This document shows positions 14 to 61,854 of a stretch of 64,000 bases of DNA, piece by piece. This DNA is from a virus: IMG/VR virus record IMGVR_UViG_3300031603_000002, positions 32,596 to 96,595 of that record. One strand, given 5' to 3'. Within the stretch, counting starts at the first letter, position 1. Each line of letters starts with the position of its first letter. Below the pieces are notes generated by a model. It was given only the letters and a program-made list of their open reading frames with translations. It ran no database searches and had not been told where the DNA came from. The position numbers and the translations under genes are program-made.

Positions 14-214
14 ATGAACCCTAACGGAACAATTTCTGATGATGAGGACCAGGCACGAGATGATCTTATGGCAGCTGTCGAAATACAGGTCGATGAGCTT
101 GTACAATATATTGAAGAGCAAGCGTGGAAAATCGGCGGAGACTTTAGAGGTCCAGGAATCAGATATCAGGCATTGAAGATTCTCAATAAAAGAGTTCAAA
201 GGAGATCACTATGA
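14..214 (+). CDS. hypothetical protein (possibly the 3' part of a gene starting upstream of the window)
   Basis: ORF ends with an ATGA overlap into 211; no motif. Confidence 0.5.
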   Translation: MNPNGTISDDEDQARDDLMAAVEIQVDELVQYIEEQAWKIGGDFRGPGIRYQALKILNKRVQRRSL

Positions 215-708
215 AAATCACACGCAGACAAATCAGAAATTTGATTAGCGAGCAGTCAGACAACGGTTTTTCAGTTGGCGACACAGTCGTTGCAACAATT
301 TTCGGCAAGGCCAAAAAGGGAAAAATCACAGAAATGCATGGCATGGGTGACATGGCAAGCGTAGATTTTGGAAACGGAGACGTTTATGGAATTATGCTGA
401 ACAGGCTAAAACCTTCGAAACGGGTTAACGAGCAGAACTACGGCCGCGGTCAGAACTATGGGTACTCACCCACTGGTCGTCCACCTCGCAAACGCGGATT
501 TAATCAGGCTAGCTCGGCATCAATGTCAGCGGCAAAATCATTGCGTGCAAAATTCAAACGACGATACCCTGACGCACAGATAAAAATTGATGGCAGAAAC
601 GGGTGGATCATCGTAAATGGAAAGAATGTCGTAAACATGGGTGCCAACGGCGCCAGCAATTATGACGAAATGGCAGAAAAAATGGAAGCTGCGTTATCAG
701 GATTCTAG
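211..708 (+). CDS. putative head-internal protein with MKIT..IR.LISE leader and SH3-like domain
   Basis: N-term MKITRRQIRNLISEQ shared with other ORFs; FSVGDTVVA...ASVDFGNG beta barrel; internal VNE site; GGAG SD. Confidence 0.7.
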   Translation: MKITRRQIRNLISEQSDNGFSVGDTVVATIFGKAKKGKITEMHGMGDMASVDFGNGDVYGIMLNRLKPSKRVNEQNYGRGQNYGYSPTGRPPRKRGFNQASSASMSAAKSLRAKFKRRYPDAQIKIDGRNGWIIVNGKNVVNMGANGASNYDEMAEKMEAALSGF

Positions 709-715
709 GTTTACC

Positions 716-722
716 ATACTTA
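716..722 (+). promoter_or_regulatory. putative late promoter ATA(T/C)TTA upstream of tail tube gene
   Basis: ATACTTA; same motif at 3064, 4232, 16111, 17274, 34762, 41148, 45810, 53119, 59295, 60525 and on the minus strand at 21414 and 44197. Confidence 0.7.
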
Positions 723-762
723 GACTTGCAATATAGCGAAGCCTCAGTCTTAGGAGATTAAA

Positions 763-1251
763 ATGGCAGAAACACTATCAGTAACGGACATGCTTCCGAA
801 TAAATTTGAACCAAAACGCCAGTTTAGGTGGGTCCTTGCTGTTGAGGGTATTGATGCCTTTATCGTAAAGACCGCTTCACGACCAAACATCGCGATTGAA
901 GAGCTGGAAATCCCGTATATCAATCACAAACGATATGTGGCAGGCAAGGCGACATTCGAAACGCTTTCAATTACATTGCACGACCCAATTGCTCCGTCAG
1001 GCGCTCAGCAGGTTATGGAATGGATTCGAACACACTTCGAGTCGGTCTCAGGTCGAGCAGGCTATGCAGATTTCTACAAGCGCGACATTCAGTTGAAGAT
1101 GCTTGATCCTGTCGGCACAGTCGTTGAACTGTGGGATATCCGTGGTGCATTCTTGACTGCAGCTGATTTCGGTACGCTTGATTACAGTACATCAGACGCT
1201 TCAGAAATCGCATTGACGGTCCGGTATGATAATGCCGTGCTTCAATATTGA
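763..1251 (+). CDS. tail tube protein (T4 gp19-like)
   Basis: FEPKRQFRW, YVAGKATFETLSITLHDP, YKRDIQLKMLDPVG, FGTLDY pattern; AGGAG SD; head of tail module. Confidence 0.9.
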   Translation: MAETLSVTDMLPNKFEPKRQFRWVLAVEGIDAFIVKTASRPNIAIEELEIPYINHKRYVAGKATFETLSITLHDPIAPSGAQQVMEWIRTHFESVSGRAGYADFYKRDIQLKMLDPVGTVVELWDIRGAFLTAADFGTLDYSTSDASEIALTVRYDNAVLQY

Positions 1252-1273
1252 TGTAACGTTACGATAACGAGAT

Positions 1274-1302
1274 TTTACATAATCCCTTCCTGTTGGTATA
1301 CT
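1274..1302 (+). promoter_or_regulatory. sigma70-like promoter for the endonuclease gene
   Basis: TTTACA-17 bp-TATACT followed by GGGGAGG SD. Confidence 0.6.
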
Positions 1303-1322
1303 AATATCATAGGGGAGGGGTT

Positions 1323-2126: not shown

Positions 2127-2252
2127 CTCAATCATGTCAATCATCTAACAACCCCAGTCGTCCATCCAGCCACCGGAAACTCATTCAATACATACTACAC
2201 CACTTTATTAGTTACGGACGTCCAGAACCCATCATGCGTGATAATTAGTGAT

Positions 2253-3041
2253 ATGAACATCTCATCAATAAGAGCATTTGTCCGCACCACTCTCCTACAA
2301 GAAAAAGCTTCAACGGCAGAAATGGCCTCGAATGACAATTTAGCGCTGGCAACATATAAAGACCGTGACGAGTATGGCGACATTTCATATGTCCTTTTCG
2401 ATAGAAATTTGTTCATTCATTTTTTCATACAAGAAGTCAAGGCAATTGCGAAAGACGATGGCATATCAATCTCTGACATAATAAGAGACGAGTTTGATGA
2501 TGTCTTATCTGACTTATCTGCTAGAATGGCGGAACACGCAGTTTCGTTCGTCCTAGGCACAATTGACATAGAGAAGGCATGGGACGGGCCGAGTAACGAC
2601 GCCAGTATGGTACATGCTCCGGCGGCCTCAAAAGGTTATGGCCCGTTGATGTACGATATAGCCATGGCAGACGCCGGCGAGCTCATGCCTGATCGTCAAC
2701 CCGATGTGTCGAAATCTGCACAGAGCGTTTGGAAATATTACAAAAACAAAAGAAGCGACGTCGTATCAACACCCCTAGACAACATTCGTAATCCGCAGAC
2801 ACCACAAAAAACAGACGATGCCTCTGTTCATAAAAAAGGCAAAGAGAATTTTGGTAACTTCTTGGATTCATCGTACCATCTTAAGGGTAAGGGTCCTGAC
2901 GTTGCTGGAATGACTGCATCATTTAAACAACTCGAGGCGTATGTTGGCAAGAAGCTAAACATAACTCCGTACACCCTCCATGACATTTTGTGGACTTCTG
3001 CCGAGGCTTTTTACGACATCAGGCACGACACAGAAAACTAA
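2253..3041 (+). CDS. GNAT-like acetyltransferase with leader-like N-terminus
   Basis: KGYGPLMYDIAM (GNAT motif A-like), VSKSAQSVWKYY; N-term MNISSIRAFVRTTLLQE; ATAATTA 5 nt before ATG. Confidence 0.6.
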   Translation: MNISSIRAFVRTTLLQEKASTAEMASNDNLALATYKDRDEYGDISYVLFDRNLFIHFFIQEVKAIAKDDGISISDIIRDEFDDVLSDLSARMAEHAVSFVLGTIDIEKAWDGPSNDASMVHAPAASKGYGPLMYDIAMADAGELMPDRQPDVSKSAQSVWKYYKNKRSDVVSTPLDNIRNPQTPQKTDDASVHKKGKENFGNFLDSSYHLKGKGPDVAGMTASFKQLEAYVGKKLNITPYTLHDILWTSAEAFYDIRHDTEN

Positions 3042-4253: not shown

Positions 4254-7200
4254 ATGGCAGAAGAAGGCTCAGTCCAACTACAAATACAGAATCAAATGAA
4301 CGAAGCCGTGAAGGCTCGTTCTACTTTGCTTAACACTCAAACTAAGATTTTGTCGACGCAACTTGATTTGGTTGTCAAAATGCGTAATGCTTTGAAAGGT
4401 GAAGGCCTCAAAGAGGCACAGAAGGCAATTGATGATGTAAACAAAGCTTTGGATGCCAACATCATTGCCAGCGAAAAAGCCGCTGAAGGTAACCGTGATC
4501 TAGGAACCGCAGCCGCAGAAACTGGCCAAAAGCTGGAGAAGACAAAAGAGTCCCTTGTCACCGGCAAAAAGGTTTTCGGTGTGTTTGCTGATGCAATGTC
4601 AGCTGGTATCAGCACAATGACAAATGTTGGGAGTTCAATCCTCAACATCGCCGGCGCTATTGGTAAGTTAGGAATCACAATACTATCGACGCCATTCAAA
4701 ATATTTGATGCATTTGTTGAAACAGCACAGACACTTCCAAGAAACACGGCGATTGTTGATGCCCTAGAGGACATCCGCGACGCATTCGGTGATATTGCAA
4801 CAGGACCAGGAAAAGCTGTTGCAAGCCAACTGGGCACGATTAGCAAATCAGCAAGGAATCTGGCTGGGACTGGGTTGAGCGTTACTCGAGTTTTCGGTTT
4901 CGGCGCAGAGGGAATCGCAGGAGCGCTCAAGGCTGTAAACGAATTGGCCCAAGGCACCGGTGAATCGTTCACACGATTGAAAGGGGTTTTCCAAGAGTCC
5001 GGCTTACAGCTCACGATGATGCAAAAAGGCTTGGGCGTCACGGCCGAGAACATGGGCCAGTTGATGAATATCGCTGAACTCCGTGGTGAAGATGTTGGCA
5101 AATCGCTCGAGGAATTCTCAAAAATAACATTGCAAACGGCTGACGAATTTGGAATGGGCGTTAAAACCATGGCCAAAGGAATGGCAGAACTTAATGTAGA
5201 AGTCTCGACGTTTGGTCACCTGGGCCCGAAAGCATTTGCACCGATGGTTGTGTATGCAAAGAAATTGGGTATCGAGGTGAAGCAACTGTCAGGAACAATG
5301 AAGAAATTCTCAGGGTTCTCTGACACAGCAAAAGCTGCATCAGAATTGGCTCAAGGTTTCGGTATGAACATCGATGCTATGAAATTGATGGCTGCGCAGA
5401 ATCCTGCCAAGAAAATTGATATGTTGAGGAAGTCATTTTTCAACGCAGGCAACGACATTTCGAAGATGAGTTACCAGCAACGACAATACCTCGAGCAAAC
5501 AACCGGTCTTGAAGGAACAGCGTTGGAAGCTGCGTTCTCACTGGACAAACAAGGCCTGTCATACGAGAACATTGAAAAACAGGCAAATAAAGCCGGCAAG
5601 CGGCAAATTACACAAAAGAAAGTAATGCAAGATCTCGGTAAGCAAATCAAGAAACTCAATCATTTGATGAACGTCGAAAAATATGCCGGCTTCTTTGATG
5701 CGTTCATCAAAGGCTTTGGCGTTGGGCTTCTGAAGGCTGGCGGAATGCGCGGCGCCCTGAAAAATATCCAGAAGGTACTTCTGAAGGTGCACGTCGCCGG
5801 CCGTCAAGTTGCAAAAATGTTCGTGAAATATTTCCCCGGTGTACAGACGATGCTGTCGGCGATAGGCGAATTGTTTGATCCTGCAAAGATAGACGGATTC
5901 ACTGACGGCATAAAGCATGCATTCAAAACACTATTCCAATCGAAAAATGGGTGGGGTCAGTTCTTCACTGACATTGAAAATGTATTTGAAGAACGTGCTG
6001 GTGTGGGCGGAAGCATACTAAAAAAGCTAAAATCCGGATTCAACAAGTTCGCAACTTTCATTTTGAAGGGCGTAACCTCAGGTATATCAGCAGCTGTCGG
6101 GCAAATAGGCGAAAAAGTATTGCCAGCGATACAAAAATTCCTTGATGGTCTGGCATCTGACCTGGCCAAAGAAGAGAATAAAGGAAAAGGTCTGTTATCG
6201 GTGTTGTTCCAGAAAGCATCATCATCAGACATAACTAAAAAGTTTGGGCCGCTGATGGAGCCGGTGCTTGGTGCTTTACAAAAAGCGTTTACGACATTGG
6301 CACCTAAGGTCGGCAAAATACTCGAGACAGCTTGGCCGCTTATTAAGCCCTATGTCATGAAACTCGCCGGCGTCATGGCACTTTCATTCGCCGCAGGATT
6401 CGCAAAAAGCCTCATAGGCGGAATTGCATCCATCGGTATGTCTGTCATCGGCGCGAATATTTGGGGCGGAGCTAAAAAAAGTGTCGAGAAGGCATCTGGA
6501 AAAGAAGGGCTTGTCCTGCAATCAACGATTCGCGACAAGCTGGATCTCCATGTCAACTCAGCAATAAATAAAATCGATAATACTAAAATTGGCAAAAAGC
6601 TACTTGAAAAATTCGATCGTGTAGCGCTGAAATTCGGCCCGAAAATTGCCGCAGTTGGGACAAAATTAATACCGATTGCAGGCTGGGCAATTGCAATAGG
6701 CGACGCCGCGTTGAGCATAAACAGTCAAATGGACAAAATGGAGGGCAGCTTACAAAAAGATTATGGGAAGCTCGAAGGTACAATTGGCGCTGGCTCAGCA
6801 GGCATGCTCGCTGCATTGACATTGGGATTGCTTCCTGACACGATTTATAAAACGTTCGGCGAAGGTACTGCATCAATCGTAAAGTCTATGCGCGATATGA
6901 GCAAAAAAATTGGTATGGAGAATATATTTGAGACGTACCTGAAGGGCATCCGCGGCCAGATAAAAATATTCCAGGGTCTCGGAGATGTACTCGTCGGCAT
7001 ATTCGAAGGTGATACAGATCGGATCGGCACTGGATTAATCAGAATGTTTGATGGGCTTATGACAAGCCTCACGCTGTTCCCGAAGATGCTGTTTAGTGCA
7101 GTCATCGATTTGGGTCCAACGATTATCAAGGGTTTCTACCGCGCGCTGGAATTTATGTTTTTGGACATTCCGATCGGCATATTCGACATTGTTGTGGGCG

Positions 7201-8369
7201 CAGTAAATGGTTTCGTCGCCCTGGTCTCCGGAGACGGCAAGGGGTTCAGTGGCACCGTCGGTGCAATCGGTGATGCACTCGCGAACATGTTTAGCAGTCC
7301 TTTGGGCTTGCTGCAAGCAGCGCTGGAGGAAACTGCGAACAATTTCATGGAGCAGGGCAAAAGGATTTTCCTTAAGATCAAGCTTGTTGTGGCCAAAGGG
7401 CTGAACGTGATCGGCCAAGTTTCAGATGCAGACGTCAAGGCTGCGAAGATCAATCTCGCCACATTCAATGATGGCGTTAAAGAATCTACAGAAAAAAAGC
7501 TTAAAATTATTGAAGTTGCAAAAAAAGATAGCGAAAATAAAATTAAGCAAATGGGCAAATATAAAGACACCAGCTGGCTTGATATGATAGGTGCCCCTTT
7601 GGATGCAATGAAAAAAATGGAGGCTGCAAAAATATCAGCAGCTGAAAAGAAGAATTATGAAAAAATGTCTGCAGCACGCAGAATGGTTTCACAGATTGAT
7701 GACATAAAAGATATAGAAAAAAAGCTAGCTGCTGCCACAAAAAAATTAGCAAAAATTAACATCAAGAAACTAAAAAAGGATGTAAAATACTCAGTCGAAA
7801 AGCTTGGGCAGATATTTTCCGAAATCGCGACAGTTTTAGATGCTGGTAAGCTAAACGAAACAGCAAAAATAATCGCCCCGGCGTACGACACTTTTTCTTT
7901 GGCCATCGACCAGACACTGGTTCCTATTATGAAGCTCAATGATAAATTCATAGCGCTGAAAACAGGTATGTTGGGAATTACAGACAGCACCGGTATAGCC
8001 GTAAAGGCGATGCGTAAAGCACCGTTTACAAGGCTCACAAAAGAGCTACCGCATATGGAGGCAGCAATTCTCGGTATTGACAAGGTGGTCTCGTCTGTCA
8101 ATACTGCAGGCGGCAAGCTAACAAACGAAAATATCTCAAAGATGCAACCCGTTCTTGATGCTATAAAGGGTTTCAAAGGCGGTAAGATTGAAGTTTCACA
8201 TAACCTGCCCAATACTAAAATAGAGCTTACTGTGAATATAGACAGCAAGAAGCTCGCCGAAGCACTTGTGGCTGTCGACCTAGGCAAAACACCAGCATCA
8301 ACAAGCCCTAACGACAGAACGTATTTAAGCACACAAAAAGGCCAAACGAAATTACCTGGAAGTAAATGA
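4254..8369 (+). CDS. tail tape measure protein
   Basis: 1371 aa, helical Ala/Gly/Lys-rich with hydrophobic stretches; lies between chaperone and baseplate genes; ATATTTA at 4232. Confidence 0.85.
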   Translation: MAEEGSVQLQIQNQMNEAVKARSTLLNTQTKILSTQLDLVVKMRNALKGEGLKEAQKAIDDVNKALDANIIASEKAAEGNRDLGTAAAETGQKLEKTKESLVTGKKVFGVFADAMSAGISTMTNVGSSILNIAGAIGKLGITILSTPFKIFDAFVETAQTLPRNTAIVDALEDIRDAFGDIATGPGKAVASQLGTISKSARNLAGTGLSVTRVFGFGAEGIAGALKAVNELAQGTGESFTRLKGVFQESGLQLTMMQKGLGVTAENMGQLMNIAELRGEDVGKSLEEFSKITLQTADEFGMGVKTMAKGMAELNVEVSTFGHLGPKAFAPMVVYAKKLGIEVKQLSGTMKKFSGFSDTAKAASELAQGFGMNIDAMKLMAAQNPAKKIDMLRKSFFNAGNDISKMSYQQRQYLEQTTGLEGTALEAAFSLDKQGLSYENIEKQANKAGKRQITQKKVMQDLGKQIKKLNHLMNVEKYAGFFDAFIKGFGVGLLKAGGMRGALKNIQKVLLKVHVAGRQVAKMFVKYFPGVQTMLSAIGELFDPAKIDGFTDGIKHAFKTLFQSKNGWGQFFTDIENVFEERAGVGGSILKKLKSGFNKFATFILKGVTSGISAAVGQIGEKVLPAIQKFLDGLASDLAKEENKGKGLLSVLFQKASSSDITKKFGPLMEPVLGALQKAFTTLAPKVGKILETAWPLIKPYVMKLAGVMALSFAAGFAKSLIGGIASIGMSVIGANIWGGAKKSVEKASGKEGLVLQSTIRDKLDLHVNSAINKIDNTKIGKKLLEKFDRVALKFGPKIAAVGTKLIPIAGWAIAIGDAALSINSQMDKMEGSLQKDYGKLEGTIGAGSAGMLAALTLGLLPDTIYKTFGEGTASIVKSMRDMSKKIGMENIFETYLKGIRGQIKIFQGLGDVLVGIFEGDTDRIGTGLIRMFDGLMTSLTLFPKMLFSAVIDLGPTIIKGFYRALEFMFLDIPIGIFDIVVGAVNGFVALVSGDGKGFSGTVGAIGDALANMFSSPLGLLQAALEETANNFMEQGKRIFLKIKLVVAKGLNVIGQVSDADVKAAKINLATFNDGVKESTEKKLKIIEVAKKDSENKIKQMGKYKDTSWLDMIGAPLDAMKKMEAAKISAAEKKNYEKMSAARRMVSQIDDIKDIEKKLAAATKKLAKINIKKLKKDVKYSVEKLGQIFSEIATVLDAGKLNETAKIIAPAYDTFSLAIDQTLVPIMKLNDKFIALKTGMLGITDSTGIAVKAMRKAPFTRLTKELPHMEAAILGIDKVVSSVNTAGGKLTNENISKMQPVLDAIKGFKGGKIEVSHNLPNTKIELTVNIDSKKLAEALVAVDLGKTPASTSPNDRTYLSTQKGQTKLPGSK

Positions 8370-8563
8370 AAACCGACGATGAAAAAATTGATGCAGTCAA
8401 AAAATGGCTTGTAACTGAATCCGCAACTGGAAATGAGCTAGCGGCGGTATACTCATCTTTGCTAACATCGGCAAACACAGAAATTACGTCGCACTATTAT
8501 CTTATGCTCCACGATATGTTAGAATCATTCAAGAAAGTTGCGGCATCTTTCAAGGACAAGTAA
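8366..8563 (+). CDS. hypothetical protein
   Basis: translationally coupled on both sides. Confidence 0.6.
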   Translation: MKTDDEKIDAVKKWLVTESATGNELAAVYSSLLTSANTEITSHYYLMLHDMLESFKKVAASFKDK

Positions 8564-11710: not shown

Positions 11711-12007
11711 ATGGCATCAATAAACAGATATGAAAATGACAAGCTGGTGTCAGCCGGCAAGCTTTTAGGGACTAACGCCGCGATAATAAAACTCAGAAAT
11801 GCGATTTCAGCGGGCACAATACAAACGACGGCGACAGTGTTAAGAGGCGCTCAGCGCCTCGACGTAATTGCCCACGATAGTTATGGAGACGGTCGGCTTT
11901 GGTGGGTTATTGCGGCGGCATCAGGTATAGGTTGGTGGCTTCAGGCCCCCGCGGGCACTCGGATCGTAATCCCAAGCGATATCAGCGCGGTTTTAGAGGT
12001 AATCTAA
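11711..12007 (+). CDS. LysM-like baseplate protein (gp53/gpX-like)
   Basis: RLDVIAHDSYGDGRLWWVIAAAS...GTRIVIP. Confidence 0.8.
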   Translation: MASINRYENDKLVSAGKLLGTNAAIIKLRNAISAGTIQTTATVLRGAQRLDVIAHDSYGDGRLWWVIAAASGIGWWLQAPAGTRIVIPSDISAVLEVI

Positions 12008-17243: not shown

Positions 17244-17285
17244 ATATAATGTTGTCAAAACGAATGCAACAGGATATTTAGATAC

Positions 17286-19796: not shown

Positions 19797-20762
19797 ATGA
19801 ATCAGCCTGCCCACCAAGATCGTCCAGTTTTGATTATCGACTTCATGAACATGTTCATCAGGCATTTCAAAGCCAACCCGTCAATGGCATCCACCGGAGA
19901 ACCAGTCGGCGGAGTTATGGGCTTTCTTGGTGGTTTGGGACGGTTGTGCGAAACATACAATCCAAAAAAGGTAATCGTTGTTTTCGAGTCAGGCGGAAGC
20001 CAAAGAAAACGAGCAATTTCAGCGTCGTATAAGAACGGTCGAAAGGCACCGAAAATGAATCGGTACTACGGCGATGACATTCCAACGACACCTGAGAATT
20101 TTGCCATGCAAGTTCTGTTTATTACCCGTGCATTGAAATGTTTGCCGGTGACACAGGTGTACGTCTCAGGCTGCGAAGCAGACGACGTTATAGGTTACCT
20201 AGGCCGGTACCATTTCAAGACGTCCAGGGTCATTCTGGTGTCTTCAGACAAGGATTTCTATCAGCTCATCGATGAACGAGTGCAACAATGGTCGCCCGGA
20301 CAGAAAAAGTTGATTACAGAACAGGCTGTTATAGACAAGTTTGGTGTTTCTCCACAGAATTTTTGTTCAGCGAGGGTGTTCATCGGGGATCCGAGTGACA
20401 ACGTTTCTGGTGTGAAAGGTGTAGGCTTCAAGAATATGGCAAAGTGGTTCCCGCAACTGGGTGGATCCGAGTTCATTAGTCATAACGATGTTGTTGATAG
20501 CGCCATCGAATTGGCGAAAACAAAGGCAGCCAAAACGATTCATCGGATTGCTGAATCTAGAGATTTGGCGCTGAAAAACTGGAGACTGATTTACCTGGAT
20601 ACATCTCAACTATCAGGAGACCAGATTCAAAAGGTAAATCATCAGATTGAAAATGAGGGTGAGGGAAACAAGATGCAGTTGATGCGTCAGTTAATCCAAT
20701 CGGGCATGCAAAAATTTGATATTGATCGACACTTCGCCGCGATTATGTCAATTCGACGCTAG
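19797..20762 (+). CDS. 5'-3' exonuclease / flap endonuclease
   Basis: IIDFMN, YKNGR, EADDVIG, SSDKDF.QL, GDPSDNVSGVKGVG. Confidence 0.9.
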   Translation: MNQPAHQDRPVLIIDFMNMFIRHFKANPSMASTGEPVGGVMGFLGGLGRLCETYNPKKVIVVFESGGSQRKRAISASYKNGRKAPKMNRYYGDDIPTTPENFAMQVLFITRALKCLPVTQVYVSGCEADDVIGYLGRYHFKTSRVILVSSDKDFYQLIDERVQQWSPGQKKLITEQAVIDKFGVSPQNFCSARVFIGDPSDNVSGVKGVGFKNMAKWFPQLGGSEFISHNDVVDSAIELAKTKAAKTIHRIAESRDLALKNWRLIYLDTSQLSGDQIQKVNHQIENEGEGNKMQLMRQLIQSGMQKFDIDRHFAAIMSIRR

Positions 20763-21091
20763 CCAGAATATTCTGTGCCCCATTCTTCAACAGCAGCCTG
20801 GACCCGCTGAACAGGGACGCCTTCATCTTCGGCGACTTGTTCAATTGCATACTTCTCAGCGTTATAACCAGGTGCACCGTAAGCAATGTATTCACCAACA
20901 TATTGAGCGAGGTTAAAGTCAGAAGCCTTAGGTGGTCGACTCTGTTGTGGTCTCCGGCGTGGCGTTGAAGCCCCGGGAACCATACGTTGTTCACCATTGT
21001 GATCTGTGTACCAATCAAGCGTTGAATCTCGAATATCAGCCAGTCCGGCTTCACGAATGAGTTTTGTTAGTCGTTTTTTTGTAATTTTCAT
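20759..21091 (-). CDS. leader-bearing putative head-internal protein
   Basis: N-term MKITKKRLTKLIREA; coupled to the upstream minus-strand ORF. Confidence 0.75.
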   Translation of the reverse strand: MKITKKRLTKLIREAGLADIRDSTLDWYTDHNGEQRMVPGASTPRRRPQQSRPPKASDFNLAQYVGEYIAYGAPGYNAEKYAIEQVAEDEGVPVQRVQAAVEEWGTEYSG

Positions 21092-21390
21092 TCTGTCCCG
21101 CTTATTAGGTCACGCGTGTTGACTGTAAAGAGTCTGTCTCTACGAAGGTCATACACTTCTGTTCGCGATCCATCATCGCTTGTGCGTCCCACTTCAATTT
21201 CAGTTCCTGCGAGCAGCCACGCTGTTCGTCCTGATGAGCGATTTTGCAGTCCGCCCTGGTTGAGCCATAAAACATCACCGGTCAGGACTTCGCGACTACC
21301 AGGCCCTAGACCGTAATCTTCGAGCTCTGATTGGTGCAAATCAGCATATTCTCGAATGAGCCTTGTCAGGCCATTTTTTGTCATTTTCAT
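21088..21390 (-). CDS. leader-bearing putative head-internal protein
   Basis: N-term MKMTKNGLTRLIREY; AAGGA SD; ATATTTA at 21414-21420 on the minus strand. Confidence 0.75.
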   Translation of the reverse strand: MKMTKNGLTRLIREYADLHQSELEDYGLGPGSREVLTGDVLWLNQGGLQNRSSGRTAWLLAGTEIEVGRTSDDGSRTEVYDLRRDRLFTVNTRDLISGTE

Positions 21391-21521
21391 AGGTTATCCT
21401 TTTCTTCTTTCTATAAATATCTGCACAACACACCAGCGAAAATAAACATGTAAATACGGGTTTGCTTTCCTATTATTTATGCATACGAACGTGTCGGAGT
21501 TAGGCACCAAAGAGGCAATAA

Positions 21522-34788: not shown

Positions 34789-35127
34789 ATGAAAATCACA
34801 AAAAACCAATTGCGCAGACTGGTTCGAGAGCAACTTGAGCCCAGTTCAAAATGGGAAGTGCTTGTCAGGCATTCACAAGATCCTAATGCTATAAAGGGTG
34901 CTCCAGGCGTCCAAGAAGCTCTGCGGGCTCTAGCACTCGAGGTTTCCGAGCTTGGCGTATATAGCGATCAGCATGGCGCCGCGATGGACATACTCGAATC
35001 CGCCGGAATGTCATACAAGGACACGTACCAATATGCAGAAGATGCTATGCGGAATTACGGTAATGTTGAAGAAGGCGATGAAGATTGGGACGACGAAGGC
35101 GAAGGCGACGGCGAAGAAGACTGGTAG
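34789..35127 (+). CDS. leader-bearing putative head-internal protein
   Basis: MKITKNQLRRLVREQ; ATACTTA at 34762; acidic tail. Confidence 0.75.
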   Translation: MKITKNQLRRLVREQLEPSSKWEVLVRHSQDPNAIKGAPGVQEALRALALEVSELGVYSDQHGAAMDILESAGMSYKDTYQYAEDAMRNYGNVEEGDEDWDDEGEGDGEEDW

Positions 35128-42951: not shown

Positions 42952-43271
42952 TTCGCGGTACCTGCAAGGTTGGTGACTTAGTTTGGACGATCGGCCGAGG
43001 TATGCCGCATGCTGTTCGTCCTGGTTTGGTGACACGAGTAATAGCACCAACACACATCGAGTCGACATGGGATAAATATGAAGTCCTAGTCGATGGCCAG
43101 AAGAAAGAATTTTATGCAGAAAGCGTTTGTGAGTCAGAGGAGAAAGCTGAAAAGGTAGCTGTTGAATGCCGCCGCAACTCAGTCAGTCGTACAGGACAAA
43201 CATACCTTGAATCTGGTTTTGTTTATGCTCCGTATGTCCCGTTGGAAGTCACACCAACGCTGGTTGTTTAG
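42948..43271 (+). CDS. SH3-like protein with C-terminal capsid-protein-like peptide
   Basis: KVGDLVWTIG scaffold; tail GQTYLESGFVYAPYVPLEVTPT resembles the gp23 C-terminal strand. Confidence 0.7.
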   Translation: MIRGTCKVGDLVWTIGRGMPHAVRPGLVTRVIAPTHIESTWDKYEVLVDGQKKEFYAESVCESEEKAEKVAVECRRNSVSRTGQTYLESGFVYAPYVPLEVTPTLVV

Positions 43272-44191
43272 GGCCAGTTGGCCATAGCGGCTGCTTCATC
43301 ACGCAAAAACTTTTTGTAGCCGGCGGCACTTTCCACATCAACTGAAATAGCTGCCGCTGGAATTCTTGAGTATGTCCAAAACGATTTGCCTTTGTACCGC
43401 GACGTGGCAAATTCTGAATCTTCATAAAATTTCGTTCCGGGCAGCAATTTGCTCGTGTCAATTCTAAGAAACGTATAGTCCTCATAGTCGGATGCACTCG
43501 CGTCCGGACCATCATCCTGAAATGAAAAGGAGAGCTCGTCTGCCAATTCAAGACTTTGTGTGACGTATACTCGCGGGGAGTATTGCCGACCTTGTTTAAG
43601 CTTTTCTCCCGACTCGCTGTCTTTCCACTTATCTTCTTCAGTTGCATGCGACGCCTGCCGAGGGATTAATCCCTGTCGCAGGATCTTTTTTACGTCGTGT
43701 GATCTGGTGACGTGATATAGGTGAGATTCTGTTTCACTTACACGGTCGCCATAGTTTCTTTCGAGGTTATAACGAAGTTCTCGGGCAGGTGGTGGCCGAT
43801 GATTTGCAGAAAGAACCGACCATCCATAATTTTTAGATGTTTTTCGAATTATATCGTCTGCACGTTTTTCGACCATCGTTCTAATTGGTCCTGGGCTCAA
43901 AAATTGAGAAATATAAAACTCTATGACAACATATCCTGAGCCTCGATGTTGTTGCGCGATGTGTGACGCGTTCGAAATATCATCACGGACAAACCTTTCT
44001 AGCTTGTCATCATCACGAAGACCTGTCGATCCACGCAGTTTCGCTTTCATTTCACTCTTCGCGTCCGGCTCAGACAAAAGTTTCTTGATTTCTAAATTCA
44101 GGCGCTTTACTAAATGCTCAGCACCGACGGGCTGCATGCGTTTCTCAGCGAGTAATGTTTCACGAATTAATTGACGAAGTGTGTTAGTCAT
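43268..44191 (-). CDS. leader-bearing ADP-ribosyltransferase (Tpt1/KptA-like fold)
   Basis: LYHVT...ILRQGLIP...RVYVT...LRID...FYED...FWTYSRIP; N-term MTNTLRQLIRETLLAE; ATATTTA 5 nt upstream. Confidence 0.75.
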   Translation of the reverse strand: MTNTLRQLIRETLLAEKRMQPVGAEHLVKRLNLEIKKLLSEPDAKSEMKAKLRGSTGLRDDDKLERFVRDDISNASHIAQQHRGSGYVVIEFYISQFLSPGPIRTMVEKRADDIIRKTSKNYGWSVLSANHRPPPARELRYNLERNYGDRVSETESHLYHVTRSHDVKKILRQGLIPRQASHATEEDKWKDSESGEKLKQGRQYSPRVYVTQSLELADELSFSFQDDGPDASASDYEDYTFLRIDTSKLLPGTKFYEDSEFATSRYKGKSFWTYSRIPAAAISVDVESAAGYKKFLRDEAAAMANWP

Positions 44192-44221
44192 ATCATTAAA
44201 TATCGTGTAGTTCGCACCACG

Positions 44222-45780: not shown

Positions 45781-45821
45781 AAAAGGTTGAGTGTCCATGA
45801 ATGTTACCTATACTTAGACAC

Positions 45822-53146: not shown

Positions 53147-53383
53147 ATGGCAAAGATTTCAAAAACAGAATTACGTAAGTTGATCAAAGAACAATTCACC
53201 GGGGATGGAACAAGTGCCGCTGATGTTGCATTATGGGAAGCCGTTAATGATTATCTGGCACTGAAAGAAGAAGAGCTGGGGTATAATACGATGGGAGGCC
53301 AGCTTGTTGACGAGTGCATGAGAGTTGTTAAAGAAGCCCTTGCTGACGCAGAAGGTGTCGGCTACGGTCCGGGTGGATACTAA
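53147..53383 (+). CDS. leader-bearing putative head-internal protein
   Basis: MAKISKTELRKLIKEQ; ATATTTA at 53119. Confidence 0.7.
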   Translation: MAKISKTELRKLIKEQFTGDGTSAADVALWEAVNDYLALKEEELGYNTMGGQLVDECMRVVKEALADAEGVGYGPGGY

Positions 53384-54905: not shown

Positions 54906-55591
54906 AAAGCAATATCAAAAATGACGTGCTACGAGCTATCGATGGCGTTCTACCAAAACGAAAACGACTGAATGAAGCATACGTCGTATCTCCTCGTAAG
55001 TTTCAACTCAGTACCGAAAAGCTCAGTGAGAAAGTGAAGGCTGCCAGGATCAGGCACTTCGAAAAGTCAGTGACGACCCTAAACAGGGTGAGCGCTGAAC
55101 TGGACGGAGCTCGAATTGAAGAAGCCGATAACGACATCAGTAACACGTTTCGAAATCTTAAAATCGCGGAGTCATTCGCAATCAATGATTCTTTCCTACA
55201 AGGAAAGTTCATGGACAACATCAGCGATCCAAACAGTGAAATCAACATGGATATGCTATGTTATATGCGCCTCACACGAGACTTCGGAACGTTTGATAAC
55301 TGGCAGAAGCACTTTATCGCGTGTGCTAAGAGTTCACGTGATGGGTACGCCGTAACAGCATACAGTATATACCTCAGGCGATATATCAACTTTGTCGTTG
55401 ACTCTGCAGACATTGGCGTCCCATTCTCAGCAATTCCAGTTATCGTCCTGGACGTATCAGAAGGTTGCTACTACAGAGATTACTTGGACAACATAGAACT
55501 ATACATCACAAATATGATGCGAGAACTCAAGTGGGGAATCATCGACGATCGATTTAAGACGTGCGAGAAGATCGCAAGGATAACAGAATGA
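54902..55591 (+). CDS. Fe/Mn superoxide dismutase-fold protein lacking metal ligands
   Basis: RDFGTFDNWQKHF, PVIVLDVSEGCYYRDY (canonical DxWEHAYY). Confidence 0.7.
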   Translation: MKSNIKNDVLRAIDGVLPKRKRLNEAYVVSPRKFQLSTEKLSEKVKAARIRHFEKSVTTLNRVSAELDGARIEEADNDISNTFRNLKIAESFAINDSFLQGKFMDNISDPNSEINMDMLCYMRLTRDFGTFDNWQKHFIACAKSSRDGYAVTAYSIYLRRYINFVVDSADIGVPFSAIPVIVLDVSEGCYYRDYLDNIELYITNMMRELKWGIIDDRFKTCEKIARITE

Positions 55592-56307
55592 ACAAATTCA
55601 CCTTAAAAAAACTAGTCTACGGTCGACTTTTCGAGCAGGACGAAGAACCCGATGTTGAACCAGAGGGTGGCGACGATGACCTTTTCGGAGATGAAGACGC
55701 TAGTGGCGACGACGGCGAAATTTCCGGTGATGCTGGCGGCGAAGGTGGAGAAGAAGGCGCCGAAGAATTCGGTGATGATGCTGACTTTGGCGGCGGCGGC
55801 GGCGGTGGTGGAGGTATGGGCGGCGGCGGCGGCGGCGGAATGGGTGGAGATGACATGGGCGGAGAACCAGCAGCTGAAGCTGAACCAGAGGTCGAGGTTT
55901 CTGCCGCAGAGGAATACAGTATGAGCGACTCAATTGATCAAGAGCTTGACGCTCTCATGATTGATTTTGAGGAAGAGGCCAGAAAATCATCAGTCGTAAA
56001 TTCACCTGTCACCGAGTCTCGTATGCTTTATGAGGGAGAAGGAAGTGACATTGACCTTCAAAGCTTTGCAGCTAATGTTGCAAGGTTCGTAAAAAATTAC
56101 CAGAACTTGATTGATTGGGAGTCAGTAATCCTAAACAAGGCGAGGTCATTTGTCAATAATCACTATGGCGAAGAAACATCAAAGGCACTCTTCGATATTT
56201 TGGAACAGGAATATGACATTGAAACAGGAAGCATCGGCGGAACCGAAAAAGAAGAAGCACCAGAAGCCCCAATTGCGGTCGGTGGCTCAGCGGCAGGCGG
56301 ACTCTAA
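55588..56307 (+). CDS. acidic Gly-rich late protein
   Basis: MNKFTLKKLVYGRLFEQ; poly-Gly/acidic linker. Confidence 0.7.
   Translation: MNKFTLKKLVYGRLFEQDEEPDVEPEGGDDDLFGDEDASGDDGEISGDAGGEGGEEGAEEFGDDADFGGGGGGGGGMGGGGGGGMGGDDMGGEPAAEAEPEVEVSAAEEYSMSDSIDQELDALMIDFEEEARKSSVVNSPVTESRMLYEGEGSDIDLQSFAANVARFVKNYQNLIDWESVILNKARSFVNNHYGEETSKALFDILEQEYDIETGSIGGTEKEEAPEAPIAVGGSAAGGL
55789..55863 (+). repeat. GGN trinucleotide run encoding poly-Gly
   Basis: two (GGC)n tracts separated by ATG. Confidence 0.85.
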
Positions 56308-58620: not shown

Positions 58621-58626
58621 TGAAAT

Positions 58627-58983: not shown

Positions 58984-59290
58984 CACACTAATCATGAGCG
59001 AAGAGCTTGAAAACAGGGTAGGCAACCTACTTGAAGAGTCAACAGGCACGGGATTACAGTTGAGCATCCCTTCGCTATTCGCATCGTTTGATGTTGTAGG
59101 GTGGGACACAATTGATAACAGCATTTCAATTCACTCGCCCGCGAGACATCTCATTCAGTTTTTCAGAGATTTACCGCTTCATGGTCTTGTATGCGAATCA
59201 GCAATTGTTGCAAATCATACGAATGCCGAGTGCAATGAAGGTGTATGGACTGTTCGCCTTTTTTTGAATGATATGACACATGTCGGATGA
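58955..59290 (+). CDS. hypothetical protein
   Basis: packed ORF. Confidence 0.5.
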   Translation: MTTSQHSTDSTLIMSEELENRVGNLLEESTGTGLQLSIPSLFASFDVVGWDTIDNSISIHSPARHLIQFFRDLPLHGLVCESAIVANHTNAECNEGVWTVRLFLNDMTHVG

Positions 59291-59306
59291 CGGGATATTT
59301 ATGGTT

Positions 59307-59474
59307 ATGCAAGAATTTAATTTTGACAAGTTTATGAAGGACATCGAGAAACGTACTGAAAAGAACAAAACTCGAAAGAAACAGCAGAAACGTGATGAGG
59401 ATGAGTCACTTGGAAAAAAGTGGCGCCGCCGATATCAGGAACTGCCAGGCAACAAAATAAGGTATGATAAATGA
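59307..59474 (+). CDS. small basic late protein
   Basis: ATATTTA 5 nt upstream of ATG. Confidence 0.55.
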   Translation: MQEFNFDKFMKDIEKRTEKNKTRKKQQKRDEDESLGKKWRRRYQELPGNKIRYDK

Positions 59475-60148
59475 GTTTTCTCGACGAGCTTGATGATTTG
59501 GTTGTAAAGGCAGTTAATGAGACGTTTGGCTCTCGTGAACGATTGCGTCAAAAAGTACAATCAAAAAAGATAGATAAGCATAATTTCCGGGCCCCCGCGA
59601 AGAACGAGGACGAAGAGGTTGTAGAAGTCGAAGATGATATTGAAGACGATGAGAAAGAAGAGAAGCCCAAGGGTATCAAGCTAACAGGCGATCCAGACGT
59701 GGCTGCTGCAAAGGTTGAAAAGCAGAAGACTGACATTGCAAAACAGACACCAGGAACTCCTACCTCAAAGAGCATGCATGATCCAACCGAGCAGGAACTG
59801 CAGGCACCGGATTTTCAGACGATTGCAAAAAACATAAATCTACTCAGAGGCGGTAAGTCAATCAAAGATACGATGGTTCGCAGGAACTTGAAAGCCTATA
59901 TTGATAAGCTTGATCAGGTCGAGCGCCGTGAGGTACTGATTTATCTGAACAGCCTGGCACAGGTAATGTCAGGGGTGTCGTCAGGAACAACAGCCGCCGA
60001 ACCAGATCATTCTGCGCCTGTAACAACTCCGAAAGAACAACCAAAACAGGCACAACCGCAAAAGAAGCAGGAACCAAAGAAGAACCTAAACAAAGGTTCC
60101 ACATTACCAAAGACGCGACAAGACGTAATCGTTGTTGGGGCATCATGA
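59471..60148 (+). CDS. late hypothetical protein
   Basis: VNE site; INLLRGGKSIKD. Confidence 0.65.
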   Translation: MSFLDELDDLVVKAVNETFGSRERLRQKVQSKKIDKHNFRAPAKNEDEEVVEVEDDIEDDEKEEKPKGIKLTGDPDVAAAKVEKQKTDIAKQTPGTPTSKSMHDPTEQELQAPDFQTIAKNINLLRGGKSIKDTMVRRNLKAYIDKLDQVERREVLIYLNSLAQVMSGVSSGTTAAEPDHSAPVTTPKEQPKQAQPQKKQEPKKNLNKGSTLPKTRQDVIVVGAS

Positions 60149-60507
60149 TAATTCCAATTGGTTCGGGCACAAATGTTAATGTCCTTATCGAACAAAAGAA
60201 GAAGACGGGACAACACAAATGTCTCACCGGTCGTGTCGTAAAATTCTACAGCGACCGAGCCCGCAGTGACATTGAAAAGAGAATCACCGATGCAACACAT
60301 TCACGCAACGAAGAAAAACTTCGGTCTGCGGCGCGAAGCCACTACAACGGCGTTTTGAAGGTTCTCCGCGGCAAACTCAGGGACATCAATCGTAACCTGC
60401 CCAAAGATGACATTTTAGAGTCCCACGTCGTCCCCAGAACGTCCCGAAGGTCACGCCATGGGGTATTACATGCCCAAAGACTCCTGAAGCTCTCTGGCGT
60501 CCTTTAG
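60145..60507 (+). CDS. late hypothetical protein
   Basis: LIE/ILES sites; RLLKLSGVL end. Confidence 0.6.
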   Translation: MIIPIGSGTNVNVLIEQKKKTGQHKCLTGRVVKFYSDRARSDIEKRITDATHSRNEEKLRSAARSHYNGVLKVLRGKLRDINRNLPKDDILESHVVPRTSRRSRHGVLHAQRLLKLSGVL

Positions 60508-60552
60508 GGTACATTGCCGATTCAATATTTATAATACAATCAAGGGGTTGTA

Positions 60553-61854
60553 ATGTCATCAAATTTAGAAACAAGAATAAATTACCTGACGGCGAAGCGA
60601 AAGTATGAGAAGATTCTTCGTGAAGCCAAGGTAATCGTTGAACAAAGATGGGATCCAGGTTCTGGTCCGGCGGTAAAGGCGTTCGTGAAACCATTCGCGG
60701 ATATTTTCAAAGCGTTAAAACTGACTGCAATGGATATCGGTAACTCGACAAGGCTTATTTTGGGGACGTTGCTTGCCTTCGACTCGAAAAAGCTGATTGA
60801 AAAAAGAAAGGCCTTTGAAGAGAGACGAGCAATGCTTCGTGCAGAATGGAAGCCCATCATCGGAGACTCGCTCGACGCGATCAAGAACGCTGACCCACTC
60901 CTTTCGTTTTCATTGATGCCCACAGCATATTTTGCAGCCCAGGGTCTAGCGGCCGGAATTAAGACGGGCGCGACCGCCGCCGAGATCATCTCAGGTGAAT
61001 CTTGGGAACGACTACTTGAAAAGTTGTGGAGAATGCCAACGGAGCTTGATGCCCTGAATGCAATTTTGAAGTTGCAATCGGAAGAAGCTGGCAAAGGTAA
61101 TAGCAAAGGTTCAACAATCAAAAGTAAGTTATCAAGACTCTTCTTTGGTGGGGAAACAAACGAATCAGTTCTCCGCGAACAAAAAGAAAAAGCAGCCAAG
61201 TATGACACAAGCAGCGAACAGGCATGGTTGGCAGATTTCTTCAAAGACACCGGTCTTGATCAGGCGTTTGATGAGGTTGCAGCGGATTCAATCAAAAACC
61301 AGCTTAGCGTTCAACAGGAGGTCGCATCAGCTACGCAGCGAATGCTCGTGGTCGCAGAACTAATTGGAACAGACTCAGTGGAGGATTTCCAGGAGGTCCT
61401 GAAAGCTGCTGTTTCAAAAAACCAATTGGACGCTGGCGATATATCAGAGTTCGAAAAGATCATACCACAAATCGAGCAGCAGGCAAAACAATTAGCAAAC
61501 AGTCAGGATTTTAGGGTTACTGCAGCGCAGACACAAGGTGTTGATGCAGAAAAGGTGACAGACGCAACGCTGGCAGATGCTGCACGTAAAGTGGCGTTTA
61601 ACGCCGGGAAGGTAAGTTTCAATGAACAAGCAATTGGTGGAGCCGGTGGACTCGGCATTGCAAATTTCGCATCCGAGATAAAAAAACTCCGCGAAGAAAC
61701 CAAGCTAGATTCAAAAACGATTGAGCAACTCAAAAAAAGAACGAATATCCCAGAAGCCAAGCAACTCATAGAGATTTACGAAAATTCCCAGCAAAGTTAT
61801 GATAAAGCACAACAGGCACTGACGAATGCGCTCGGTTCCTCACAAGCTAACTAG
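60553..61854 (+). CDS. late hypothetical protein
   Basis: ATATTTA at 60525; ILRE, IVE, LRE sites. Confidence 0.7.
   Translation: MSSNLETRINYLTAKRKYEKILREAKVIVEQRWDPGSGPAVKAFVKPFADIFKALKLTAMDIGNSTRLILGTLLAFDSKKLIEKRKAFEERRAMLRAEWKPIIGDSLDAIKNADPLLSFSLMPTAYFAAQGLAAGIKTGATAAEIISGESWERLLEKLWRMPTELDALNAILKLQSEEAGKGNSKGSTIKSKLSRLFFGGETNESVLREQKEKAAKYDTSSEQAWLADFFKDTGLDQAFDEVAADSIKNQLSVQQEVASATQRMLVVAELIGTDSVEDFQEVLKAAVSKNQLDAGDISEFEKIIPQIEQQAKQLANSQDFRVTAAQTQGVDAEKVTDATLADAARKVAFNAGKVSFNEQAIGGAGGLGIANFASEIKKLREETKLDSKTIEQLKKRTNIPEAKQLIEIYENSQQSYDKAQQALTNALGSSQAN

Follow-up and report, generated by a model that had tools for sequence, protein, structure and literature searches.

Background

In phage T4, IPI, IPII and IPIII, which are internal proteins, together with the Alt propeptide, carry a short N-terminal capsid-targeting sequence (CTS) that is removed by the head protease gp21 (PMC9026906, PMC3012670); the protease obeys the rule L/I-x-E, and what the original prediction said of the internal-protein CTS and of gp21 cleavage agrees with PMC9026906. 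In phiKZ, 201phi2-1 and SPN3US, inner-body or ejection proteins are processed by gp175/gp245 at S/A-x-E, and about 19 head proteins are processed in 201phi2-1 (PMC9026906, PMC5694885). Passages of PMC2839356 give more than 30 IP variants for the T-even phages (citing Repoila 1994 and Comeau 2007) and describe the PeSL promoter cassettes of T4-type genomes, with early promoters and terminator stem-loops.

We analyzed a 64,000-nt window, the whole stretch considered here, which is part of the 96.6-kb contig of a large, uncultured, T4-like phage. The contig encodes a gp20 portal, a gp23 major capsid protein (MCP) and a gp21-type prohead protease of family S77 (genome 7427-8050), which matches PF03420 at 5.8e-25 and retains the GE.(D/N)HP and SSRG.GS motifs of T4 gp21, with the catalytic His and Ser. 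A 318-kb relative, G001, served for comparison. Many otherwise unrelated proteins of this phage begin with the same short leader, which is probably a lineage-specific, expanded counterpart of the T4 CTS, through which the tagged proteins would be loaded into the head.

Results

Leader genes and their statistics

The leader is 14-15 residues long, with the consensus MK(I/M)T(K/R/E)xQL(R/K)xL(I/V)(R/K)E; at least 12 ORFs of the contig start MK(I/M)T..QL(R/K).L(I/V)(R/K)E. The genes concerned in the window are:

1..214 (+): 3' part of a leader gene (whole gene genome 32546-32809); leader MKITQKQLRRLIKE, 49 nt before the window start
211..708 (+): leader gene, 165 aa; leader 211-252, MKITRRQIRNLISE
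2253..3041 (+): 262-aa protein whose N-terminus is weakly leader-like, MNISSIRAFVRTTLLQE; membership unproven
20759..21091 (-): leader gene, 110 aa; leader 21050-21091, MKITKKRLTKLIRE
21088..21390 (-): leader gene, 100 aa; leader 21349-21390, MKMTKNGLTRLIRE
34789..35127 (+): leader gene, 112 aa; leader 34789-34830, MKITKNQLRRLVRE
43268..44191 (-): 307-aa protein with a variant leader, 44159-44191, MTNTLRQLIRE, then TLLAE
53147..53383 (+): leader gene, 78 aa; leader 53147-53191, MAKISKTELRKLIKE, offset by one residue
55588..56307 (+): 239-aa Gly/Asp/Glu-rich protein whose N-terminus is weakly leader-like, MNKFTLKKLVYGRLFE; membership unproven

The eight N-termini of the original prediction were all confirmed, in position and in strand, and the observation is real and stronger than first reported. 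Two that had been listed as weaker versions, at 2253 and 55588, fall below the PSSM threshold, while that at 44191 (-) is a conserved variant, LRQLVRE/TLLAE being kept in all full-length homologues. When the residue pattern was counted on the 96.6-kb contig with Met not required, 10 copies were found, against a mean of 0.01 in 100 codon shuffles, and all 10 lie at ORF residue 2, right behind ATG or GTG. The PSSM gave 13 matches on the contig, 11 of them at ORF starts or one residue in, and one of the remaining two falls inside a scaffold-like 583-aa protein; in G001 every one of the 31 matches is at an ORF start. Further strong copies are found at genome 8455, 15815, 16054, 18331, 32070, 32327 and 32546, most of them just beyond the window. 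Moreover, unsupervised clustering of N-termini, a method that also recovers T4 ipII/ipIII and Alt, yields a 10-member cluster here. A complete 293-kb genome holds 18 tagged genes; no radical-SAM gene was found in it.

The gene at 1..214 (+) is the third of four tandem leader genes behind a second sheath gene, and it has an ortholog in G001. Its neighbour at 211..708 (+) encodes a basic cargo (pI 9.9) composed of a small beta-barrel, a disordered linker and an alpha/beta domain; its homologues keep the leader whether the beta-barrel is present or absent. No family was found for the 262-aa protein at 2253..3041 (+), whose N-terminus is conserved in the G001 ortholog. The start of 21091 (-) and the stop of 21390 (-), the leader gene upstream of it, share 4 nt (ATGA), and the two genes are translationally coupled; the latter has no ortholog in G001. 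At the locus of 34789..35127 (+), whose cargo is acidic (net charge -19), G001 has three leader genes. The cargo of 53147..53383 (+) is also acidic, and its G001 ortholog shows the same promoter spacing.

Cargo proteins and gene turnover

Once the leader is removed, BLASTP recovers only 7 orthologous pairs between the contig and G001 and one paralogous pair, which bears out the claim that the downstream domains are unrelated. Most cargo proteins are small acidic ORFans. The 307-aa protein with the variant leader has a C-terminal Tpt1/KptA-like ADP-ribosyltransferase fold (Foldseek against PDB Tpt1/KptA: E 3e-6, probability 1.0) and a weak profile match to Tpt1/KptA proteins and to DarT; the N-terminus is retained in its homologues, as are the H, Y and D/E columns. 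The word effectors, used in the original prediction, is a guess for all cargo but this one protein.

Tagged loci gain and lose genes: gene number at each of them differs between close relatives, and five strong-leader genes are without ortholog in a 93%-complete relative of about 83% DNA identity. Leader DNA repeats between neighbouring genes, and one inserted gene is flanked on both sides by a 33-nt promoter-bearing repeat.

The tag might direct its bearers to the prohead and be cut there, the proteins themselves being expendable core or scaffold accessories that, like T4 gp67 and gp68, are degraded and expelled before DNA packaging. Many cargo proteins are in fact of small size and strongly acidic, as T4 gp67 is; head-module proteins carry the leader, which is also found, in part, inside the scaffold-like protein; and the product of 55588..56307 (+), hyper-acidic (net charge -51) and 95% identical in G001, may be a prohead-core-type protein. 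Essential core parts should nevertheless be conserved, yet the five genes above lack orthologs in a close relative; the cargo consists of unrelated ORFans, and a scaffold role fits poorly with an enzyme fold of the Tpt1 type, here found after a variant leader. We regard this explanation as rather unlikely, and head loading with retention of the cargo as the better account.

The tag is specific to viruses and is widespread across IMG/VR, with at least 118 loci; 596 Gb of prokaryote genomes gave 15 stretches, of which about half are chance matches and the others sit on short MAG contigs. It is absent from every Pfam and PHROG family and from ten cultured phages, including T4, RB43, P-SSM2, Syn9, S-PM2, HTVC008M, immuto, RM378 and Mel-JY01; the N-terminal tag of RB43, MKIRSGFVSNSSSSSF, is unrelated to it in sequence.

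A promoter-like motif upstream of tagged genes

Four ATA(T/C)TTA motifs precede leader genes of the window:

21414..21420 (-): ATATTTA, starting 30 nt ahead of the 21390 start codon
34762..34768 (+): ATACTTA, 27 nt ahead of the 34789 start codon
44197..44203 (-): ATATTTA, just 12 nt ahead of the 44191 start codon
53119..53125 (+): ATATTTA, 28 nt ahead of the 53147 start codon

The claim that most of these genes sit behind ATA(T/C)TTA holds in part: it is right for 21390 (-), 34789, 53147 and 44191 (-), while 21091 (-) is coupled to 21390 (-) and no such motif lies upstream of 211, 2253 and 55588. The motif occurs 17 times in the window against 9.7 expected, a modest excess only; its signal is position, 24-29 nt ahead of start codons, rather than count. 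In G001 ATAYTTA precedes 14 of 31 leader genes and 39 of 412 other ORFs (Fisher p 1e-6; about five-fold), nearly always at -24 to -29 before leader genes. Overall, about half of the tagged genes are preceded by this late-promoter-like motif, which is also found ahead of the genes for the MCP, the scaffold-like protein, sheath and tube and of baseplate-region genes. Since some tagged genes of G001 also have an upstream sigma70-like extended -10, their expression may not be purely late.

The leader end as a probable head-protease site

The leader ends in (L/I/V)-x-E. When extra leaders were sought by scoring residues 2-12 only, so that Glu14 was not imposed, Glu14 was present in 40 of the 43 found (93%). 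For the tetrapeptide [LMVI][IV][RKQ]E, 21 occurrences were counted where 9.6 were expected, and 12 or 13 of the 21 are within leaders. An L/V-I-R/K-E tetrapeptide is also found at MCP residues 57-60 (QVIRE↓ASS), the predicted maturation site, which corresponds in position to the T4 gp23 site FLTE↓AEIGG and matches the leader end; another lies inside the scaffold-like 583-aa protein, in KKLRRMVRE↓AA. The head-module gene at genome 8455, two genes past the protease, bears a leader, and its orthologs in relatives begin with the canonical MKITK. Among 139 leader ORFs of IMG/VR, 43 are at most 3 kb from head or tail genes, with hot spots next to the protease as well as between sheath and tube. PF03420 is present in 11 of the 18 leader-bearing IMG/VR records, including 3 of 3 at 90% completeness or above, and the records that lack it are 27-45% complete fragments; this co-occurrence carries less weight in that large marine phage contigs are mostly T4-like in any case. 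As the leader ends in a predicted cut site of the head-maturation protease, capsid loading of the tagged proteins, in the manner of the T4 internal proteins, is most likely. Against this, (L/I/V)-x-E is a short and common motif.

The leader could instead be a docking helix for a non-capsid partner, such as a phage or host machine, a chaperone or a nucleic acid, its x-E end being incidental. The leader is a basic amphipathic helix, which is a generic binding element, and tagged genes are dispersed among those of replication and nucleotide metabolism. We judge this possibility unlikely: the unimposed Glu14 at one fixed position, the identical tetrapeptide at the predicted MCP site, the hot spots beside the protease and the late-promoter motif common to tagged and structural genes all argue for the head instead.

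Selection on the leader peptide

Selection acts on the leader peptide. From codon 8 onwards every synonymous codon is in use at the Leu, Arg, Ile and Glu positions (six each for Leu8 and Arg9) while the residues stay fixed, and information content is at background level beyond residue 15-16. The first four codons are instead strongly biased to ATG AAA ATC ACA (AAA 31 of 34, ACA 26 of 32), and this, together with the repeated leader DNA and the 33-nt repeat, would fit conservation at the nucleic-acid level, as a 5' translation-initiation element or as an anchor for recombination when cassettes are shuffled, with no role for the peptide. The codon variation from codon 8 opposes this reading, which we consider very improbable; residue-pattern copies are never found in other frames or in gene interiors (by PSSM, one match is inside the scaffold-like protein), and a role in recombination could be an extra consequence rather than a cause.

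Both AlphaFold models show the leader as a helix of low confidence that stands apart from the folded domains. A signal for membrane targeting or secretion, to which an N-terminal, amphipathic tag with a Lys/Arg-rich face might point, is highly improbable, since direct reading of the leader found neither a hydrophobic core of at least 7 residues nor a signal-peptidase motif, a lipobox or a twin arginine context, five or six of its fourteen residues are charged, and the cargo is acidic and soluble-looking.

Discussion

All the computational tests that were run (S77 protease, Glu14, tetrapeptide sites, head-module leader gene, locus turnover and motif enrichment) agree with the leader being a T4-type capsid-targeting sequence or propeptide, as originally predicted; the promoter link that went with it extends to about half of the genes. 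Through the leader helix, new proteins would dock with the acidic scaffolding core while the prohead assembles; the gp21-type S77 protease would then cut after the leader Glu, at (L/I/V)-x-E, and so remove the helix. The mature cargo would then be retained within the head, and some of it, at least, would probably exit with the DNA at infection. Tagged genes would be late ones, about half with their own ATAYTTA 24-29 nt before the ATG and the others in short operons behind one; they occupy loci of fast gain and loss. It counts against capsid loading that about 30 tagged proteins, if all were packaged at T4 copy numbers, would use much of the head volume.

The system resembles the T4 CTS (PMC9026906, PMC3012670) in placing a short N-terminal tag on otherwise unrelated proteins, in the end (L/I)-x-E, in the presence of a gp21-type S77 protease, a gp20 portal and a gp23 MCP, in the hypervariable loci of the tagged genes and, as with Alt, in an ADP-ribosyltransferase fold, here behind a variant leader. 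The T4 tag is a 10-residue sequence (MKTYQEFIAE), whereas the leader here has 14-15 residues and is strongly basic; save length class, helicity and the x-E end, the two have no recognisable common sequence. T4 has 3-4 tagged genes, against at least 12 per 96.6 kb here and about 30 per 318-kb genome (ten times T4), spread across ten or more loci, and the cargo is mostly acidic, unlike the basic, DNA-binding IPII and IPIII.

With phiKZ, 201phi2-1 and SPN3US this phage would share large size, many head-loaded proteins and a gp21-related protease proposed to cut after Glu; in those phages there is no single shared short tag, the propeptides are long and varied, P3 is Ser or Ala and the head modules are not T4-like in sequence. 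As in the hyperplastic regions, PeSLs and IP loci of T4-type genomes described in passages of PMC2839356, small ORFans with their own promoter are swapped between close relatives; unlike the PeSLs of those passages, the motif here is late-promoter-like and the shared element reaches into the coding sequence.

The T4 head propeptides, gp24 (MAKINELLRE↓S), gp22 (MLKEQLIAE↓A) and gp21 (..LLIE↓T), offer a further likeness in Met, early Lys, hydrophobic pair and x-Glu; the leader at 53147, MAKISKTELRKLIKE, resembles the gp24 start, and the MCP has VIRE↓A where T4 gp23 has LTE↓A. The T4 proteins gp24, gp22 and gp21 are conserved structural proteins with one propeptide each, whereas here one tag is found on many accessory ORFans.

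Gene content of the phage record

The record, 96,595 bases long and 28% complete by CheckV, carries a T4-type head module ahead of the window (which covers genome 32596-96595), with genes for the large terminase, portal, protease and major capsid protein. The portal is of the gp20 type (PF07230, 2.4e-72) and is interrupted by an intein; in its gene (genome 3557-6619, 1020 codons; genome coordinates are those of the whole record) the intein and an HNH endonuclease (PF14890, PF13392) stand ahead of the portal domain. The prohead protease (genome 7427-8050) belongs to the Peptidase_S77 family (PF03420, 5.8e-25); it shares 31% identity with T4 gp21 and retains the GE.(D/N)HP and SSRG.GS blocks with the catalytic His and Ser. 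The major capsid protein is of the gp23 type (PF07068, 1.5e-77), and its best matches among GenBank phages are below 50% identity (an uncultured 484-kb phage, Flavobacterium phage immuto, Microcystis phage Mel-JY01 and Rhodothermus phage RM378).

Two paired, paralogous sheath-like genes (genome 25783-28950 and 28977-32060; 1055 and 1027 codons) lie before the window and are kept in relatives, where the interval between the second of them and the tube gene is a recurrent site of the leader genes described below. In the window the gene order leads from the tail tube, past three large proteins, to replication and nucleotide genes, among them those for a UvsX-like recombinase, a DnaB-like helicase, ribonucleotide reductase and a DnaE-type polymerase. 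The three consecutive large ORFs after the tube gene (window 4254-14964; 1371, 1048 and 1021 aa) have no PHROG match, and an ATATTTA motif stands ahead of the first. The polymerase (window 46730-50287) is a DnaE-type Pol III alpha subunit in a T4-like phage, and at the DNA level it matches only short stretches of Streptomyces phage DnaE genes.

A shared leader at the start of unrelated proteins

The leader is an N-terminal module of 14-15 residues, MK(I/M)T(K/R/E)xQL(R/K)xL(I/V)(R/K)E. The eight N-termini on which the original prediction rested were all found in place, and its claim of one leader shared by unrelated proteins is borne out and extended, since the contig holds at least 12 strong copies:

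Genome 8455, 15815, 16054, 18331, 32070, 32327 and 32546: strong leaders outside or just before the window
Genome 32806 (window 211): strong leader
Genome 53686, reverse strand (window 21091): strong leader
Genome 53985, reverse strand (window 21390): strong leader
Genome 67384 (window 34789): strong leader
Genome 85742 (window 53147): strong leader
Window 2253 (262 aa) and 55588 (239 aa): weak leader-like N-termini, putative members only
Window 44191, reverse strand (307 aa): variant leader

A residue pattern written without the initial Met occurs ten times in the contig, each time at residue 2 of an ORF after ATG or GTG, against a mean of 0.01 copies in 100 codon shuffles. A position-specific scoring matrix (PSSM) built from ten strong copies gives 13 matches, and the sole clearly internal one lies in the 583-aa scaffold-like protein encoded just upstream of the capsid gene. 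The leader stands at the extreme N-terminus: matches to the regular expression or the PSSM begin at residue 2 (or 3) of the ORF, and neither search finds an internal copy in the accessory proteins. The leader also opens the 183-aa protein encoded two genes past the protease; orthologs of this protein in relatives start MKITKTQLKNLVKE.

Unsupervised clustering of N-terminal 12-mers returns one ten-member cluster in the contig. Applied to T4 as a control, it recovers the Alt pair and a group of ipII, ipIII and gp61.1. The T4 gp61.1 product that clusters with IPII and IPIII (NC_000866 18966-19130; a 54-aa hypothetical protein) starts MKTFKEFIKE, near their capsid-targeting sequence (CTS), MKTYQEFIAE.

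Conservation and predicted structure of the leader

The 34 leaders of two genomes use six codons each for Leu8 and Arg9, five each for Leu11 and Arg13, and both codons for Glu14. Codon bias is limited to the first four codons, ATG AAA ATC ACA, where it may be due to translation initiation. Selection acts on the leader peptide and not on the DNA, and on these codon data the reading of the leader as a pure nucleic-acid or mRNA element is rejected. Residues 2-14 carry 1.7-3.7 bits of information and residue 15 (Gln, Ala, Ser or Glu) 1.6; background is reached from residue 16-17. The flanks of IMG/VR matches were scored on residues 2-12 only, so that Glu14 was not imposed; among the 43 further distinct leaders obtained in this way, position 14 is Glu in 40 and position 13 is Lys or Arg in 38.

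From its composition table, the leader is predicted to be helical, with I3, L8, L11 and I12 on a hydrophobic face and K2, K5, R6, R9, K10 and R13 on a basic one. Both AlphaFold models show it, with low confidence, as a helix that stands apart from the folded part, the second model having a pLDDT of only 64.6. Basic and hydrophobic residues alternate over positions 1-16 with no hydrophobic run, and on this composition a Sec, Tat or lipoprotein signal peptide is rejected.

Cargo proteins

Most cargo, that is, the protein minus its leader, has 57-150 residues and is acidic, with a pI near 4.1-4.7; a few cargo proteins are basic. The downstream domains had been called unrelated, and this stands: BLASTP on leader-free cargo detects no similarity within the genome, and its matches are orthologs only. 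Pfam and PHROG scans of the members in the window, outside it and among the 118 listed from IMG/VR assign no family to the leader or to most cargo, and those 118 share none; one leader protein matched a 'head scaffolding' PHROG.

In the 307-aa protein (window 43268-44191, reverse strand) the variant leader LRQLVRE is followed by TLLAE and is conserved. Its C-terminal domain resembles Tpt1/KptA RNA 2'-phosphotransferases (Foldseek E 3e-6, probability 1.0), with lower matches to DarT and bacterial ADP-ribosyltransferase folds. For the 262-aa protein, an ESM Atlas look-up returned only viral hypotheticals. The 239-aa protein (window 55588-56307) is hyper-acidic and rich in Gly, Asp and Glu, with a net charge of about -51. 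It is 95% identical in G001, a 318-kb relative from IMG/VR, which exceeds the genome DNA identity of about 83% and therefore indicates strong constraint; it may be a protein of the prohead-core type.

Turnover of leader genes between relatives

G001 (93% complete) is syntenic with the contig at about 83% DNA identity. All of its 31 PSSM matches are at ORF starts, and the tagged set amounts to about 7% of its genes. Of the strong-leader genes, only seven could be paired as orthologs across the two genomes; five of those in the contig (16054, 18331, 32070, 32327 and 53985 on the reverse strand), together with the weak 15145, have none in G001. Gene numbers vary at every locus.

Leader genes per locus in the contig and in G001
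Around 15-16 kb (contig coordinates): contig 2, G001 5
After the second sheath gene: contig 4, G001 2
Window 20.7-21.4 kb: contig 2, G001 1
Window 34.8 kb: contig 1, G001 3

The end of the leader is a frequent end point of DNA alignment blocks between the two genomes. The window-211 protein has homologues with and homologues without the beta-barrel domain that follows the leader, and the leader is kept in both. A 33-nt direct repeat (94% identical; genome 15088-15120 and 15762-15794) flanks an inserted gene (15145-15762) that encodes 205 aa and is without an ortholog in G001; each copy of the repeat contains a promoter-like ATA(C/T)(C/T)TAG, and the pair looks like the footprint of a cassette insertion or duplication.

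A late-promoter-like motif

The motif ATAYTTA occurs 23 times on the coding strand of the contig and 6 times on the other; in the window, the number of copies exceeds the chance expectation by a modest margin only. At a distance of 15-60 nt it precedes several leader genes as well as those for the capsid, scaffold-like and 1371-aa proteins, the tube and the first sheath, and from the genes it accompanies we infer that it is a late promoter. Of the 31 leader genes in G001, 14 have it within 80 nt, compared with 39 of the 412 remaining ORFs (odds ratio 7.9, p 1e-6), and the spacing is nearly always 24-29 nt. The proposed cassette of promoter plus leader therefore holds for about half of the genes. 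The leader genes without a motif of their own mostly follow in tandem behind a promoter-bearing one.

Four copies lie only 12 nt ahead of an ATG (window 17274-17280, 44197-44203 on the reverse strand and 45810-45816; genome 21433-21439 on the reverse strand). If ATAYTTA is a -10-type late promoter, mRNAs from these copies would have no 5' untranslated region or almost none. For the ORF listed from window 45801, the probable start is 45822 (MKIYTK). Upstream of ATAYTTA by 20-40 nt, the G001 leader genes 24779, 151291 and 301221 have an extended -10-like (sigma70-like) element, TGGTATAAT, and thus some tagged genes may be expressed early as well as late.

Distribution of the leader

A degenerate DNA pattern for the leader, searched in IMG/VR, matched at least 118 loci. 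All 139 matches listed are ORF starts with varied downstream sequence, and 43 of these ORFs lie within 3 kb of, and on the same strand as, homologues of the contig's head and tail genes; the recurrent sites among the matches listed are beside the protease and between sheath and tube. PF03420 is present in 11 of the 18 tagged IMG/VR records searched, including all three that are at least 90% complete, and the seven records that lack it have completeness values of 27-45%. Each of the complete or large relatives has 6-18 copies, against no matches for a reversed control pattern.

Prokaryote genomes (596 Gb) gave 15 matching stretches, about half of them chance matches inside genes and the remainder on short MAG contigs of phage-like appearance. 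Among the named phage genomes checked, only the uncultured 484-kb LR756508 was positive, with four copies; the leader is absent from T4, RB43, P-SSM2, Syn9, S-PM2, HTVC008M, Flavobacterium phage immuto, RM378, Microcystis Mel-JY01 and the metagenomic LR756511. RB43 has an N-terminal tag of its own, which is Ser-rich and differs from the leader. We found no published account of the leader peptide.

The head protease and the comparison with T4

T4 gp21 cleaves after Glu in L/I-x-E; the 10-residue CTS of IPIII suffices to bring foreign proteins into the T4 head, and in the T4 CTS targeting is the role of residues 4 and 7, processing that of residues 8 and 10 (PMC9026906, PMC3012670). The leader ends in L-(I/V)-(R/K)-E at residues 11-14, which fits the protease motif (L/I)-x-E. 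Among 31,000 residues there are 21 copies of the tetrapeptide [LMVI][IV][RKQ]E, where shuffles give 9.6, and three of its positions outside the leaders stand out. One is in the major capsid protein, at residues 57-60 (QVIRE|ASS), about 30 residues ahead of the conserved VRR block; this predicted site corresponds in position to the T4 gp23 maturation site, FLTE|AEIGG. The others are in the 583-aa scaffold-like protein, within the leader-like stretch KKLRRMVRE|AA, and in the 92-aa protein of the head module.

The best reading of the leader, supported by seven independent lines of sequence evidence, is a lineage-specific, much expanded version of the T4 CTS. Alternatively, the tagged proteins could be dispensable parts of the core and not cargo that stays in the head, or the leader helix could dock on a partner other than the prohead. 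A tag recognised by a radical-SAM/SPASM system is rejected: a complete 293-kb genome that has 18 tagged genes lacks PF04055, the single copy in G001 lies some 25 kb from the nearest tagged gene, and the leader lacks the run of Ser and Cys expected of such a tag.

Taking the leader as a targeting sequence of the T4 kind, we tentatively propose, with somewhat less than even confidence, that one 14-residue tag marks the whole packaged, and probably injected, set of a widespread uncultured clade of 190-320-kb T4-like phages. This set would comprise some 10-30 fast-evolving proteins per genome, encoded in expandable arrays of tag-plus-late-promoter cassettes; one member, with a variant tag, would be an NAD-dependent modifier of nucleic acid or protein, and the shared 5' DNA and promoter repeats may serve as recombination handles for new cargo. 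If the leader functions in the proposed way, a simple sequence rule reads out the virion-delivered proteins of a large uncultured marine and environmental phage group, and dozens of uncharacterised proteins per genome become first-line candidates for anti-defence or host takeover. The T4 internal-protein principle of one tag and many cargo would then be ancient, lineage-specific in form and expandable ten-fold in big phages, and tag and protease together would offer a second, orthogonal way to load foreign proteins into phage heads.

The T4 genome has no match to the leader pattern, and the T4 cluster from the 12-mer method is a different sequence. As the leader is unlike MKTYQEFIAE, it would be an analogue or a distant variant of the T4 CTS and not the same tag. 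T4 head proteins begin in the same style (gp24 MAKINELLRE, gp22 MLKEQLIAE, gp21 ..LLIE). The 307-aa protein, with its predicted ADP-ribosyltransferase-type fold behind a variant leader, parallels Alt, an ADP-ribosyltransferase that T4 packages and that has a short propeptide (PMC9026906). Moreover, the two systems share a gp21-type (S77) protease in a T4-like head module, one tag over unrelated mature proteins, and tagged genes in hypervariable loci of otherwise syntenic genomes.
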